Origin: an uncultured Actinomycetota bacterium
Lineage (GTDB): Bacteria; Actinomycetota; Actinomycetes; S36-B12
Assembly (NCBI GenBank): GCA_963749905.1
Contig: CAVVOF010000006.1
Span: forward strand, 208,162 to 272,161
Direction of reading: 5' to 3'
Length of the DNA stretch: 64,000 nucleotides
The notes below the pieces were generated by a model. It worked only from the letters and a program-made list of their open reading frames with translations, did not search any database and had not been told where the DNA came from. The number at the start of each line of letters is the position of its first letter. Position 1 is the stretch's first letter. The position numbers were made by a program, and so were the translations under genes. Positions 11,930 to 51,666 of this stretch are shown piece by piece.

Positions 11930-12110
11930 GGCTGCCCGTCCTTTCCTCCGGTGCCGCCGGGACTCCTCCCGGCAACGTCTGCGACCAGACCCTTAACCTC
12001 TACTTGAGGCTAAGATTTCGACCCGGCCTTGGCCGGCGGGAGGTTAGGCCTTTTCTTCCCTGTTGCGCAAGGTGAGGGTGGGACCAAAGTCTCAACTACT
12101 ACTTGAGACC

Positions 12111-12182
12111 GATCCCGTCGAGCGTGGAGCTGAGGCGCGAAACGCCGAAGGCGAGCGCCTCAGCTCCACGCTCGACGGGATC
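12111..12182. repeat. Type-A palindromic hairpin repeat, copy 2 (perfect 28-nt arms)
   Basis: gatcccgtcgagcgtggagctgaggcgc (12111-12138), 16-nt loop gaaacgccgaaggcga, gcgcctcagctccacgctcgacgggatc (12155-12182). It ends 2 nt from the ftsQ stop codon. Confidence 0.88.
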
Positions 12183-12184
12183 GG

Positions 12185-12965
12185 TCAGCGGGATCGGAAC
12201 GTGGTCGGCATCTCGGGTGCCGACACGTCGTACAGGTCGGCGCGGCGCCGGCTGTCCAGCAGCACCCGGAGCACCTCCGCCTTGAACTCGGGCTGCTCCG
12301 CACTCCCCCAGCGCACCTGGTCCCCCGACCGCAGGCGCAGCAGGACGTCATCGCGAGTGGTCGCCTCCGCCGACACCACTCGGCGGGACAGGTCGGCGGG
12401 CAGGCTGTCCAGCACCGCCATCGTCTCCGCCAGCGCCGCCCCGGACGCCGTGACCCGGGGCAGGCCCTTGGGCAGGGCGCCGAGCGGCTCGAACACCACG
12501 CCCTCCGCATCGACGGCCCGACGCACCGCCGGTGCCACCGCTGCGCCGGCGAACGACGAGCCGGCGGTCGACGGGGCACCGGTGGAGATCACGATGGCCA
12601 CCGGCACGCGTTCCGTGACTGCGACGACGATCTCCGACGGCCAGCCGCGCCGCACCTCGACACTCGACACCCACGGCAGCTCGCGGACGGACTCCTCGGC
12701 GCGCTGCGTGTCGATGCGGGCCAGCGGCTGGCCCAGCGGCACCGCAGCAGCGGCCAGCACCGCGTCGGCGCGGGCACCCTCGATGCCGACGACGCGGACG
12801 TCCTGCGCAGCCAGCAGCGACGAGAACCAGACGGCCCACACCGCTGCGGCGACCAGGGCGGCCACCAGCAGCACGAGCCAGCACGCGGATCAGCCTGCGG
12901 TACGAGCGGCGGGGCGCGGCGAGCGCGCGAGCGGGGGCCGGGCGGTCGACGGTCGGCGCGCTCAT
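12185..12965 (-). CDS. ftsQ: Cell division protein FtsQ (POTRA); apparent frameshift near 12877
   Basis: The N-terminus [13 protein letters not shown]...YRRLIRVLA sits in one frame (ATG 12965, ATGA overlap with the murC stop). The TM and POTRA body VLLVAALVAAAVWAVWFSS...VRVVGIEGA sits in ORF 12185..12874. Confidence 0.85.
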
Positions 12966-25979: not shown

Positions 25980-26108
25980 GGGTGTGGTGGCTGCTGGTTC
26001 CGTGTGGCCAGGTCCCCGCCCGCTGTTTCCAGCGAGCCCCTGGCACGGGGGAAGTCGTGTCAGGAGCGAGGTGCGAGGAGCGGGAGGAGACCTCACCGCA
26101 CGGCGCCG

Positions 26109-26546
26109 TCAGATGCCCGGGAGCACCTCCTCACTGAGGCCGGAGAAGGCCTCCTCCTGCTCGGCCAGGTAGCTGGCCCAGGTCTCGGCATCCCAGATCT
26201 CGGCGGTCGGTCCCTTGCCCACGACCACGACCTCGCGGTCCAGGCCGGCGTACTCGCGCAACTGCGCGGGCACCGTGATGCGGCCCTGCTTGTCGGGAAT
26301 CTCGTCGGAGGCTCCGGAGAAGAGCACCCGGGCGTAGGCCTGGATCCGAGGGCTGGACTTCGAGGTCTCGTTGAGCTGGGCCGCGTAGTCGGCGAACTCC
26401 TGCGCCGGCCAGACCACGATGGCGCGGTCCTGGCCCTTGGTCAGCACCAGGCCGCCGGCCAGCGCCTCACGGAACTTGGCGGGCAGGACCAGCCGGCCCT
26501 TGTCGTCGAGGCGAGGCGTGTGCGTGCCCAGGAATCCTAGGAACAT
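26109..26546 (-). CDS. mraZ: Transcriptional regulator MraZ
   Basis: [26 protein letters not shown] and a second SpoVT/AbrB-like half, [13 protein letters not shown]. Confidence 0.93.
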
Positions 26547-26600
26547 CCACCTCACCTCCCCCTCTAGCCCCGGCTACACCCCTGGCACCTCCAGGTGTCG

Positions 26601-26634
26601 CCACTGTACTCCACTTTCCTCCACCGTCAACCAC
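26601..26634 (-). promoter_or_regulatory. Predicted MraZ operator: four GTGG boxes with exact 10-bp phasing
   Basis: ccac occurs at 26601, 26611, 26621 and 26631 on the plus strand. On the coding strand this reads GTGGTTGACG GTGGAGGAAA GTGGAGTACA GTGG. The boxes lie 55-88 nt upstream of the mraZ start. Confidence 0.55.
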
Positions 26635-26674
26635 ATTCCCCCCATGTCTGCCCGCGTCCCCCTCCACTCCCCTC

Positions 26675-26746
26675 CCCCGTCCGTCTTGAGGTTGGTGGTC
26701 GGATTTCGGGCAGCAGGCGACCACCAACCTCAAGACGGACGAGGGG
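26675..26746. repeat. Type-B palindromic hairpin repeat, copy 1
   Basis: Left arm cccccgtccgtcttgaggttggtggtcg, 16-nt loop gatttcgggcagcagg (26702-26717), right arm cgaccaccaacctcaagacggacgagggg. It begins 15 nt downstream of the sigma-gene stop. Confidence 0.82.
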
Positions 26747-26760
26747 TGGGGCGGATGGGG

Positions 26761-27537
26761 CTAGGAATCGAGGCGCGCGCGCAGCCGCGCGGCCACCTCC
26801 GGCGAGACGACGGTGTCCGGATCGCGGAGGGCGCCGGCACAGGCATGGACCCCGACCAGCGCGGACACAAGGGGCGGGCAGGTGGGGCAGGCGGACAGGT
26901 GCCGCTCGAGGACGACGGCCGTGTCGGCGTCCACCTCCCCGTCGAGGTAGTCCGACACCCGGCTGCGCGCATCCCAGCAACGCAGCGGCACCCCGCGCAG
27001 CGCCACCCGGCGCTCATGCCCGTCCGCCAGCGCGCTGACCAGCATCATCCGGCCCCGGCGCAGGCGCTGCTTGGCGGCCGGCAGGTCGACGTCTGTCAGC
27101 TCCGCGGCCTCGCGCACCGTCAGGCCCTCGACATCGTGCAGCACGACGGCCGCGCGGTAGATGACCGGCAGCCGTACCAGGGCGTCCTCGAGCTCCTCGC
27201 GGGTCTCTGCGGCGGCCACGACGGCGGCGGCGTCGACCGAGTACTCATCCGACATCCAGCGTTCCTCGACCTCGTCGACGAGGATCTCGCGGTCCTTCCG
27301 CGAGCGGTCGATGGCGAGGTTGGTGATCACCCGCCGCAGCCACGCGTCCATGTCCCGGATGTCGGCGAGCTGCTCCCGCCGCTCGAACGCGCGCAGGATG
27401 GCCTCCTGGACGATGTCCTCCGCGGCGTGGCTGTCGCGGGTGAGGGAGCGGGCGTACGGCAGCAGGCGCGCGCCGCGCGCCGCGAGAAAAGCACCGGCCG
27501 ACTCCCCATCGGGAGCCGGCCAGGGCGAATCAGTCAC
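26761..27537 (-). CDS. ECF sigma-70 factor fused to a C-terminal zinc-binding anti-sigma (ZAS, HxxxCxxC) domain
   Basis: GTG 27537. Region 2 reads EDIVQEAILRAF...WLRRVITNLAIDRSRK. Region 4 reads LPVIYRAAVVLHDVEGLTVREAAELTDVDLPAAKQRLRRGR. Then comes DYLDGEVDADTAVVLERHLSACPTCPP, with no stop in between. Confidence 0.8.
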   Translation of the reverse strand: MTDSPWPAPDGESAGAFLAARGARLLPYARSLTRDSHAAEDIVQEAILRAFERREQLADIRDMDAWLRRVITNLAIDRSRKDREILVDEVEERWMSDEYSVDAAAVVAAAETREELEDALVRLPVIYRAAVVLHDVEGLTVREAAELTDVDLPAAKQRLRRGRMMLVSALADGHERRVALRGVPLRCWDARSRVSDYLDGEVDADTAVVLERHLSACPTCPPLVSALVGVHACAGALRDPDTVVSPEVAARLRARLDS

Positions 27538-27560
27538 GCGCTCATTGTGCCGTCGGTGGA

Positions 27561-27767
27561 TCAGGCGCGGCTCTTCGCGGTGGAGATGCCGAACACGCGG
27601 TAGAGGGGGCAGAACCCGGTGGCCGCGGTGATCAGCATGATGGCGGCGACCGCGAGGAGCACCCAGCCCAGCACCGAGCCGAAGCCCACTGCCCAGGCGC
27701 CCAGGACCGCGGCGATCGCGATGATGACGCGAATCACTCGATCGATGCCGTTCTCGTTGGTGGTCAT
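27561..27767 (-). CDS. DUF2892 (YgaP-like) small membrane protein
   Basis: ATG 27767 is preceded by aaggag. Sequence MTTNENGIDRVIRVIIAIAAVLG...TGFCPLYRVFGIST. Confidence 0.7.
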   Translation of the reverse strand: MTTNENGIDRVIRVIIAIAAVLGAWAVGFGSVLGWVLLAVAAIMLITAATGFCPLYRVFGISTAKSRA

Positions 27768-27854
27768 TGCCGACTCCTTCGCTGTTCGTGACCATCCCGG
27801 TGATGGCCCGTCATAGAGGAAGACGCACGAACCGGCCAAAGGGATACCGGATCT

Positions 27855-27925
27855 CCCCCGTCTGTCTTGAGGTTGGCGGTCGCCTTTGGCCCGGTTTCCG
27901 ACCGCCAACCTCAAGACAGACGGGG
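27855..27925. repeat. Type-B palindromic hairpin repeat, copy 2
   Basis: Left arm cccccgtctgtcttgaggttggcggtcg, 16-nt loop cctttggcccggtttc (27883-27898), right arm cgaccgccaacctcaagacagacgggg. It lies in the divergent spacer between the DUF2892 and DUF3048 genes. Confidence 0.82.
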
Positions 27926-27938
27926 AAGGGCGCGCGGC

Positions 27939-29162
27939 GTGTCCGGAGCATCGGTGCCGCCCACGTACGCTTCAGCGGTGATCCGGGTCGGGCGTGTCGT
28001 CGTCGTGGCGGCCGCCCTGCTGTCCGGCACCGCCCTCGCCGCCTGCACGACCACCCCCACGGCCACGCCGACGCCGACCCGCGGCGGCAGCCAGGGCACG
28101 GCCTCGACCAGCCCATCCGCAGCCCCGACGCCATCCGCGACGCCCACCCCCTCCCCCACGCCGACCTTCACCGTCACCGATCCCGCGACCCCGCAGCCGA
28201 CGTGGTGGTCGCCGCTCACCGGCCGGCCGGGCGACGGGCCGGAGCCGGTACTCGTCGTCAAGCTCGACAACACCACGTATGCGCAGCCGCACGCCGGCCT
28301 GACCAAGGCGGACGTGGTCTACGTCGAGGAGGTCGAGTACGGCATCACCCGCATCGCCGCCGTGTTCTCGAGTCGGGTGCCGACGCGCATCGGCCCGGTG
28401 CGGTCGGCGCGCATCACCGATGTCGACCTGCTCGCGCAATACGACAAGCCCGCCTTCGCCTACTCGGGCGCGCAGCGCAAGATGTACGCCGCCCTGGACG
28501 CCGCGCCGTTCCGGGACGTGTCGCCGAGGCGCGGGGCGGCGGGCTACTCGCGCGACTACAACCGCCGGGCCCCGTACAACTACTTCCTCGACGGCCGCGT
28601 CGCACTCGACCGCGCGCCGAAGGCCAGCCTCGCGACGGACATCGGCTTCACGTTCGACGAGGAGGTGCCGACCGGTGGACGGGTGGCCACGAAGGCCACC
28701 ATGCGCTGGGGCTACTCCTCCGCGGAATTCGACTACAGCCGCAAGCTCGGCGCGTACAAGGTCGGCCTCAACGGCGTCCGGGCCGGCGCCGAGGAGCGGG
28801 AGTCCGGCCAGCTGGCCGACACCGTCGTCCTCCAGTACGTGAGGCAGACGCCGTCGAAGTACTTCGACAAGGGCGGTGGCAACACCCCGCACGCCGAGAC
28901 CATCGGCGCTGGCAAGGCGTGGGTCCTGCGGGACGGGCTGGCCTGGAAGGTCGACTGGAATCGCCCAACGGCCGAGTCAGGCACCACGTTCACCCTGCCG
29001 GACGGCACGCCCCTGCCGTTCAAGCCCGGGCAGACCTGGGTCGTCCTCCTCGACAAGGACCGCAAGGCGACCGTCACCCCGTTGACGCAGCCGAAGCCTG
29101 CGCCGAGTCCCTCGCTCACCAGCAGCCCGGCACCCAGCAGCTCACCCACCAGCAGCTCCTGA
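27939..29162 (+). CDS. DUF3048-family lipoprotein
   Basis: The lipobox SGTALAAC is followed by a Thr/Pro-rich linker and PLTGRPGDGPEPVLVVKLDN...GITRIAAVF...RSARITDVDLL. The start could also be GTG 27978. Confidence 0.8.
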   Translation: MSGASVPPTYASAVIRVGRVVVVAAALLSGTALAACTTTPTATPTPTRGGSQGTASTSPSAAPTPSATPTPSPTPTFTVTDPATPQPTWWSPLTGRPGDGPEPVLVVKLDNTTYAQPHAGLTKADVVYVEEVEYGITRIAAVFSSRVPTRIGPVRSARITDVDLLAQYDKPAFAYSGAQRKMYAALDAAPFRDVSPRRGAAGYSRDYNRRAPYNYFLDGRVALDRAPKASLATDIGFTFDEEVPTGGRVATKATMRWGYSSAEFDYSRKLGAYKVGLNGVRAGAEERESGQLADTVVLQYVRQTPSKYFDKGGGNTPHAETIGAGKAWVLRDGLAWKVDWNRPTAESGTTFTLPDGTPLPFKPGQTWVVLLDKDRKATVTPLTQPKPAPSPSLTSSPAPSSSPTSSS

Positions 29163-51620: not shown

Positions 51621-51666
51621 GCCTCAGACCTGTATTCGAACACCTGTTCGAATACAGGTCTGAGGC
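51621..51666. promoter_or_regulatory. Perfect 46-bp palindrome containing a consensus actinobacterial LexA (SOS) box
   Basis: gcctcagacctgtattcgaaca-cc-tgttcgaatacaggtctgaggc. The core TCGAAC-ACCT-GTTCGA is at 51636-51651. It lies between the divergent dnaE2 operon and the GGDEF-EAL gene. Confidence 0.8.

Follow-up and report, generated by a model that had tools for sequence, protein, structure and literature searches.

Two hairpins flanking a sigma/anti-sigma module in an uncultured actinobacterium: probable solo copies of a species-specific palindrome family with a nuclease partner gene

Palindromic repeats paired with a partner gene are described from Proteobacteria as the REP/REPIN-RAYT systems, or "REPtrons" (Bertels and Rainey 2011, PMC3116915; PMC3337134; 10.1101/2021.07.10.451892). 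In Actinobacteria, the TRIT element ("Tuberculosis Rho-independent terminator") of Mycobacterium is known from 147 palindromic copies at gene ends, located at approximately −8 relative to the stop codon (Gardner et al. 2011, PMC3152330), and a structure of this type has been proposed as an RNase III substrate (PMC13714241). Here we examine two hairpins, B1 and B2, in a 64,000-nucleotide stretch of DNA (the window) from an uncultured actinobacterium. The window corresponds to positions 208162-272161 of contig C6 in a genome of 3.28 Mb (∼70% GC, 7 contigs, 92% complete). B1 and B2 bracket two genes, one for a small membrane protein (DUF2892) and one for an extracytoplasmic function (ECF) sigma factor fused to an anti-sigma domain. 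A reading made from the sequence only had proposed that the pair either insulates this module or carried it to the locus. The analysis described below indicates that B1 and B2 are probably unrelated, fairly old solo insertions of a species-specific repeat (type B) that is cognate to a nuclease gene elsewhere on the contig (C6:564949-565890).

Both hairpins are real and lie where they had been reported. The B1 core occupies positions 26675 to 26744 of the window, with pairing that reaches 26669-26750, and the B2 core occupies positions 27856 to 27925, with pairing that reaches 27853-27930; neither is assigned a strand. The arms of B1 (26669-26701 and 26718-26750) are 33 nt long and 91% complementary, those of B2 (27853-27882 and 27899-27928) are 30 nt long and 97% complementary, and in each case a 16-nt center separates them; within the cores, the arms comprise 27 to 28 bp. 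The window contains exactly four occurrences of the 13-mer GTCTTGAGGTTGG, one per arm of B1 and B2, compared with 0.84 matches in a shuffled window when up to two mismatches were allowed. The two elements are alignable across 82 nt and differ at 11 of 70 positions. As the sequence-only reading had observed, two of these differences are mirrored in the opposite arm (C-G versus T-A at columns 8/63 and T-A versus C-G at columns 22/49), and B2 has one compensated arm change, T22C/A49G. B1 is located 10 to 16 nt past the stop codon of the sigma gene, the place where a terminator would be expected and a typical type-B position. The spacer that holds B2 is the divergent one between the DUF2892 gene and a DUF3048 gene; the DUF2892 start is ∼88 nt away and the GTG at 27978 ∼52 nt away, and this placement belongs to a minority class. 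The predicted RNA fold of B1 has a free energy of −89.9 kcal/mol on the minus strand (z of −7.6), and that of B2 has a free energy of −72 to −73 kcal/mol on either strand. No U-tract follows the stem of B1 or B2; the sequence beyond both stems is G/C rich, and a terminator scan reported no terminator-like site. An Rfam scan of B1 and B2 returned only animal microRNA precursor models, far below threshold, and these matches were rejected as generic long-hairpin artifacts.

A census of the genome counted 51 copies of type B, a dispersed family resembling REP elements or miniature inverted-repeat transposable elements (MITEs). When the copies were aligned on their centers, near-perfect pairing extended over 35 positions per arm and then fell abruptly to background, which defines a 70-bp unit. 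The consensus is a perfect 70-bp palindrome whose arms start with CCCCGTC; its left half reads CCCCGTC-N-GTCTTGAGGTTGGTGGTCG-caaaacGT and its right half reads ACgttttg-CGACCACCAACCTCAAGAC-N-GACGGGG. The center is exactly 16 nt long in 48 of the 51 copies, and most copies have a center that is palindromic in its own right (caaaacGTACgttttg is one example). The length of 16 nt given earlier for the B1 and B2 loops was correct for both, and the nonpalindromic centers of B1 and B2 are degenerate states of a longer palindrome. Among 42 distinct 70-mers, 94.9% of cells pair. Twelve of 33 column pairs have changed on both sides, with 53 such cells compared with 17.9 in shuffled alignments (none of 500 shuffles reached 53). 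In the arm core (columns 20 to 22), eight double changes were found, transversions included, with no one-sided G-U state. Since double-sided changes are seen throughout the family, the compensatory pairs of B1 and B2 are an instance of a general property of type B.

Six type-B copies are identical 70-mers at unrelated loci and are taken here as the master sequence. In 24 other species of the genus, the type-B arm was absent, with only scattered half-sites at two mismatches. An exact arm 19-mer gave 10 matches in GTDB genomes and 8 in JGI metagenomes, all single and unpaired, as many as chance alone would give; these matches revealed no second host. Weakly related 70-nt palindromes (∼80% identity) occur in a few congeners (G042, G045, and G020). 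Type B therefore appears to be species specific and, as a species-specific family with identical copies, appears to have proliferated recently, a behavior like that of REPINs. B1 and B2 are among its most diverged copies: B1 has 14 differences from the master 70-mer (rank 47th of 48 by distance), and B2 has 11 (rank 44th). Given these ranks and the 11 differences between them, B1 and B2 appear to be old and separate insertions. A further palindrome of the window, a perfect one of 46 bp at 51621-51666 (22-bp arms, 2-nt center), is unique in the genome.

The candidate partner of type B is a single-copy gene encoding 313 amino acids at C6:564949-565890, which is outside the window but on the same contig, at a distance of 330 kb. 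Type-B copies flank it on both sides, namely, C6:564777-564846, ∼100 nt upstream, and C6:565876-565946, which overlaps the stop codon. The space of 1099 nt between these palindromes holds this one open reading frame (ORF) only, and the neighbors of the cassette are pilus-cluster genes. The protein combines an AbiEi-like winged-helix module with a putative DUF559/Vsr-like nuclease domain. Its N terminus matches AbiEi_4 of Pfam, and in an AlphaFold model (pLDDT of 91), the N-terminal two-thirds matched AbiEi (6y8q; E = 4.5e-7) and Rv2827c (1zel; E = 9e-5) in Foldseek searches. The C-terminal domain aligns with those of paralogues in the same genome, and a five-paralogue profile matches the DUF559 structure 3hrl (E = 0.002). 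Two of the paralogues (f1 and f5) score 31.1 and 26.7 bits against PF04480, for which the threshold is 20.6 bits, and paralogues also match MTES_1575. The type-B protein alone falls below the Pfam DUF559 threshold, and Foldseek matches of its C-terminal domain are weak. Across 40 homologues, residues D234, E248, and D250 do not vary. The nuclease is not covered by any NCBIfam family.

When all ORFs in the genome were searched with a profile, seven AbiEi_4/DUF559 genes were found, six of which have a palindrome on both sides. In these six cassettes, each palindrome family is distinct, and 1049 to 1099 nt separate the flanking copies. The cassettes belong to type B (fam0; C6:564777-565946; 51 paired copies in the genome), type A (fam2; C2:268950-270106; 35 paired copies, from a looser census), fam4 (C4:657501-658628; 26 paired copies), fam1 (C3:844950-846070; 23 paired copies), fam5, in which the gene is frameshifted (C3:951000-952116; 14 paired copies), and fam8 (C4:959017-960138; 11 paired copies). 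The type A and type B proteins are each other's closest paralogues (43 to 45% identity), and their palindromes share the outer sequence CCCGTC...GACGGG. One type-A copy, with a 32-bp stem, lies in the window at 12107-12186.

At least 100 homologues of the type-B protein were found, many of them on contigs of only 1.0 to 1.6 kb, as expected if flanking repeats break assemblies. Seven of eight homologue loci examined (L053, L054, L055, L057, L058, L059, and L060) have a palindrome 77 to 150 nt upstream of the start codon and another at or overlapping the stop codon. One of them, L060, is a positional orthologue: it has the same pilus neighborhood, the protein is 64% identical, and the arms, CCCCGTCTGTCTTGAGGTTGGTGGCCGC, are almost identical to those of type B. 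The cassette lies in the pilus cluster in the source genome and in L060; in L053 and L057, it is found at a radical-SAM/RodA locus. In a comparison of 12 cassettes, more similar proteins tended to go with more similar arms (Mantel r = 0.62, P = 0.0014). A full-text literature search found no paper describing an AbiEi/DUF559 gene framed by palindromes, and this repeat-plus-enzyme partnership in Actinobacteria is apparently unpublished.

The promoters of AbiEi antitoxin genes contain paired inverted repeats of ∼23 bp to which the antitoxins bind. As a tentative explanation, to which we give slightly less than even weight, AbiEi-DUF559 nucleases may recognize their own palindromes of ∼60 to 70 bp in Actinobacteria and propagate or homogenize them; the REP/RAYT type of partnership would then have been invented a second time, independently and on an unrelated nuclease scaffold. 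The AbiEi-like module of the partner protein would recognize the ∼27-bp arms, and the DUF559 domain would nick or cut there, with the result that palindromes are copied, moved, or homogenized. It is this mobilization by the nuclease that we infer. Most copies sit just past stop codons, where they would be tolerated, and the transcript would there form a stem of 27 to 33 bp.

Several observations weigh against nuclease-driven propagation. The enzyme is not a known transposase, and target-site duplications are lacking: no direct repeat occurs in the flanks of any of the 51 copies or at the filled site C6:563821 when it was compared with the empty site in L060. The two type-B copies that flank the cassette have 7 differences from the master sequence of the recent burst. 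The seventh AbiEi/DUF559 paralogue (C6:481583-482599) has no flanking palindrome and may be an orphan or domesticated copy, and a distant homologue in Streptomonospora (L056) has no palindromes either. The Mantel correlation alone is no proof of recognition, because linked DNA is co-inherited. Finally, four smaller palindrome families (fam3, fam6, fam7, and fam9) have no AbiEi/DUF559 gene nearby. These families lie on contigs C2 to C4 (examples are C2:241152-241243 and C3:317892-317985); fam3 has 8 copies of ∼92 nt with arms CAGATTTGCACCGCTTCCCGG, and fam6 is built from TTTGTCCCGnnnnGCGGGACAA units.

The placement of type-B copies was analyzed with a GC3-based (third-codon-position GC) gene caller built for this analysis, with which gene starts are approximate. 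Convergent spacers hold 22 of the 51 copies, compared with 17% of all spacers (binomial P = 8e-6), tandem spacers hold 21 (versus 67%), and divergent spacers hold 8, B2 among them (versus 17%). A stop codon is overlapped or lies within 35 nt in the case of 39 of the 51 copies, compared with 17.8 ± 3.4 for random placement in spacers. For 14 copies, the host ORF as called by this crude method apparently ends at the TGA of the conserved arm sequence CTTGAGG; such ORFs (e.g., at C2:437416, C3:70746, and C4:141331) enter the element by 15 nt. Should those gene calls hold, these genes would take their last four codons and their stop from the element, as also happens at the nuclease gene of the family. 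The flanks of type-B copies are pyrimidine rich (C/T) on the left and purine rich (G/A) on the right. Empty sites were found in relatives for three insertions, namely, B1 and B2 (in L033 and L032) and C6:563821 (in L060). The last differs from L060 by a clean ∼70 bp, the spacer in L060 being a bare 10-nt gap. Insertion into preexisting terminator hairpins, suggested by the composition of the flanks and by C-rich and G-rich outer arms at the B1-equivalent site of one congener (G042), was rejected, as no hairpin is present in the plain 10 nt of the empty L060 spacer. At that site in the congener (L033:2313-2450), a C-rich/G-rich imperfect inverted repeat with a 62-nt interior is followed by tandem GGGGGTGAGGGG-like repeats; it may be an older hairpin or a decayed element, and similar outer arms also flank B1 in the source genome.

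The enrichment just after stop codons and in convergent spacers, together with the great stability of the stems, is what would be expected if the palindromes were selected RNA elements (bidirectional terminators, 3'-end stabilizers, or RNase III sites), with B1 and B2 insulating the module and the nuclease a bystander. TRIT provides a precedent, as a conserved actinobacterial palindrome at gene ends that marks transcript 3' ends (PMC3152330; PMC13714241). We nevertheless consider this explanation unlikely. A U-tract is missing, and 8 of the 51 copies, B2 included, lie in divergent promoter spacers. The family is species specific with identical copies, which points to recent spread rather than to ancient conserved signals, and relatives express the same module without type-B elements. 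A role in RNA alone also fits poorly with the mapping of six families each to its own nuclease gene and with compensated changes in the arm core that include transversions and lack G-U intermediates.

Locally, B1 may serve as a 3' stem-loop (a transcript end or a site of RNase III type) positioned after the sigma gene and before the mraZ promoter. A role of B1 as a local transcriptional insulator is possible because it lies ∼40 nt upstream of a promoter-like mraZ site and because its predicted fold is so stable. B2, in the divergent promoter region, has no evident role, and nothing shows the pair acting as a unit.

Slightly less probable than RNA function is that the palindromes are binding sites of the AbiEi-like protein (operators, chromosome-organizing sites, or decoys), which the protein would regulate or mark without copying them; their spread would have some other cause, such as recombination or replication slippage at hairpins. 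The AbiEi-like fold, the known binding of AbiEi antitoxins to paired inverted repeats in their own promoters, and the position of the upstream cassette copy, at a distance of 77 to 150 nt from the start codon that would suit an operator, all accord with binding. Most copies, however, lie past stop codons and not at promoters, and the invariance of D234, E248, and D250 suggests that catalysis matters. Binding also leaves unexplained the six identical copies at unrelated loci.

We regard it as improbable that the nuclease genes are selfish homing-type genes that inserted beside or between copies of preexisting palindrome families, which would have spread independently. The association of one gene with one family, the many homologues on contigs of 1.0 to 1.6 kb, and the different cassette loci in different lineages could be read in this way. 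Against it, each family has one nuclease gene, and the type-B gene is stable at the same pilus locus at 64% amino acid identity; being single copy and stable at this locus, it looks vertically inherited. In addition, both flanks of the cassette are complete palindromes and not split halves. Propagation by the nuclease itself remains the explanation that we prefer, at the tentative strength given above.

The remaining question is whether the bracket formed by B1 and B2 marks an acquired module. The sigma/DUF2892 module is located between mraZ and the DUF3048 gene only in one sublineage, which comprises the source genome and two congeners (G042 and G046). In most congeners, mraZ is directly beside the DUF3048 gene (e.g., in G019, locus L036), and several of these have the module elsewhere, at 72 to 74% identity. 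In the two congeners of the sublineage, this module occupies the corresponding locus, and neither junction has a type-B repeat (L033 and L032, respectively); a further congener (G022) has it at an alternative locus with no flanking palindromes. Because relatives have the module here without the repeats, it had arrived at the mraZ/DUF3048 locus before B1 and B2 inserted. This synteny comparison, which the sequence-only reading had recommended, gave the outcome named there as refuting its proposal of a composite, MITE-flanked acquisition. The recommended comparison of base composition likewise gave no sign of foreign origin, as the GC3 of the module (0.92 to 0.95) equals that of the neighboring genes.

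The census bears on the same question. Placement of type B is not random with respect to genes, given the preference for stop codons, and close pairs enclose unrelated genes. Neighboring copies less than 1.5 kb apart form 9 pairs, compared with 0.91 expected (0 of 5,000 simulations reached this number), and the pair around the partner gene is one of them. The segments inside close pairs have no mutual similarity and encode unrelated products, such as a universal stress protein, PadR, RsfS, and an aldose epimerase, so that shared cargo was rejected; the only gene between two type-B copies that fits the family pattern is the AbiEi/DUF559 gene. Neighboring copies resemble each other no more closely than random pairs do (9.0 versus 8.7 differences, P = 0.64), and local duplication of sibling copies was rejected on this basis. 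Clustering of type B is real, and it is no sign of composite transposons. The bracket around the sigma module is incidental and not a unit; it would be a by-product of the tendency of type B to occupy neighboring spacers. Although the module did arrive at this locus in one sublineage, a composite mobile unit with B1 and B2 as its ends is very improbable in view of the congeners that have the module without repeats here or elsewhere, its unremarkable GC3, the divergence of B1 and B2 from each other, and the eight other close pairs that enclose unrelated genes.

The identity of the two enclosed genes given earlier was confirmed by Pfam searches. The sigma gene (26761-27537, minus strand; GC3 of 0.92) encodes Sigma70_r2 (2.7e-12), Sigma70_r4_2 (2.4e-13), and a C-terminal zf-HC2 (7.5e-09; ZAS-type anti-sigma domain) in one chain. 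The membrane protein gene (27561-27767, minus strand) matches YgaP-like_TM, formerly DUF2892 (PF11127; 8.7e-21). An exact look-up of this protein, aimed at sister strains, returned no entry. A terminator-like hairpin with a T-run lies just past this gene at 27494-27523 (minus strand), inside the predicted 5' end of the sigma ORF; the sigma ORF start may be misplaced, or the hairpin may be an attenuator. Downstream of B1 is mraZ (26109-26555, minus strand; MraZ, 1.3e-36), the first gene of the dcw cluster. Its promoter-like site, TTGACG-16-TACAGT (26603-26630, minus strand), lies in a genus-conserved block ∼40 nt beyond B1. Between mraZ and rsmH, positions 25990-26109 (minus strand) match the Rfam mraW RNA motif (RF01746) at 41.6 bits, which is below the gathering score of 50, yet the match spans the full length of the model. 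The neighbor of B2 is the DUF3048 lipoprotein gene (27978-29162, plus strand; DUF3048, 2.2e-31; DUF3048_C, 1.3e-18). It has an in-frame alternative start at 27939; on the basis of the signal peptide and lipobox, and by comparison with L033, it most likely starts at the GTG at 27978.

For the window, the outcome is that a false lead has been removed: the module was not imported on a repeat-flanked element, and the appropriate annotation for B1 and B2 is that of solo copies of a dispersed repeat. If the nuclease does propagate the palindromes, REP-like genome repeats would have a second route of origin, with a different mechanism. Such propagation would also provide a function for a very large protein family that is annotated "AbiEi antitoxin domain" or "very-short-patch-repair endonuclease-like" and would explain the long perfect hairpins that end many actinobacterial genes, including those hairpins that rewrite the final codons and stop of their host gene. 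The same might account for TRIT-like palindromes at gene ends in other actinobacteria. Six orthogonal nuclease/palindrome pairs in one genome constitute a ready-made specificity matrix.

Of the known systems with which type B was compared, canonical intrinsic terminators differ in that the type-B stem has no U-tract. MITEs such as the Correia elements of Neisseria are likewise small, noncoding, and located between genes, have inverted ends, and can supply stops or RNase III sites to neighboring transcripts. Type-B copies lack target-site duplications, however, and type B as a whole is one palindrome, with no unique core set between two terminal repeats. A parent insertion sequence with type-B ends was not found, and no solo arms bracket a longer element. 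The AbiE/MenAT type IV toxin-antitoxin systems are approached through the partner protein, whose N-terminal two-thirds is predicted to share the AbiEi fold (6y8q; Rv2827c, 1zel). In contrast to those systems, the 1.1-kb cassette contains no gene for an AbiEii/MenT nucleotidyltransferase toxin and is surrounded by pilus-cluster genes, and the partner protein carries the putative C-terminal DUF559 nuclease domain instead.

The closest actinobacterial repeat by description is TRIT: both are sequence-conserved palindromes at the ends of actinobacterial genes, often overlapping the stop codon, and TRIT, being palindromic, works in both directions. Many species of Mycobacterium share TRIT, whereas type B is limited to a single species, except that the orthologous gene of one relative is flanked by an arm nearly identical to that of type B. 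TRIT has no reported partner gene.

By logic, the closest system is REP/REPIN-RAYT, of which type B is not a member on account of its enzyme and the signature of its arms. The flanked gene encodes not a Y1/HUH enzyme (IS200/IS605-like; RAYT, PF01797) but an AbiEi-like winged helix-turn-helix module with a putative DUF559/Vsr-like PD-(D/E)xK nuclease. The type-B arms lack the 5' GTAG signature, the host is a high-GC actinobacterium, and the downstream type-B copy supplies the stop codon of the partner gene. The two nevertheless share an architecture and a way of being distributed. In both, short extragenic palindromes whose two inverted arms form a hairpin occur in tens of copies (51 for type B, with 35-bp arms). 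In both, the sequence is lineage specific with compensated arm changes, and the copies are clustered and without target-site duplications. Both have a single-copy partner gene flanked by its own repeat, and in both, several orthogonal repeat/gene pairs coexist in one genome.

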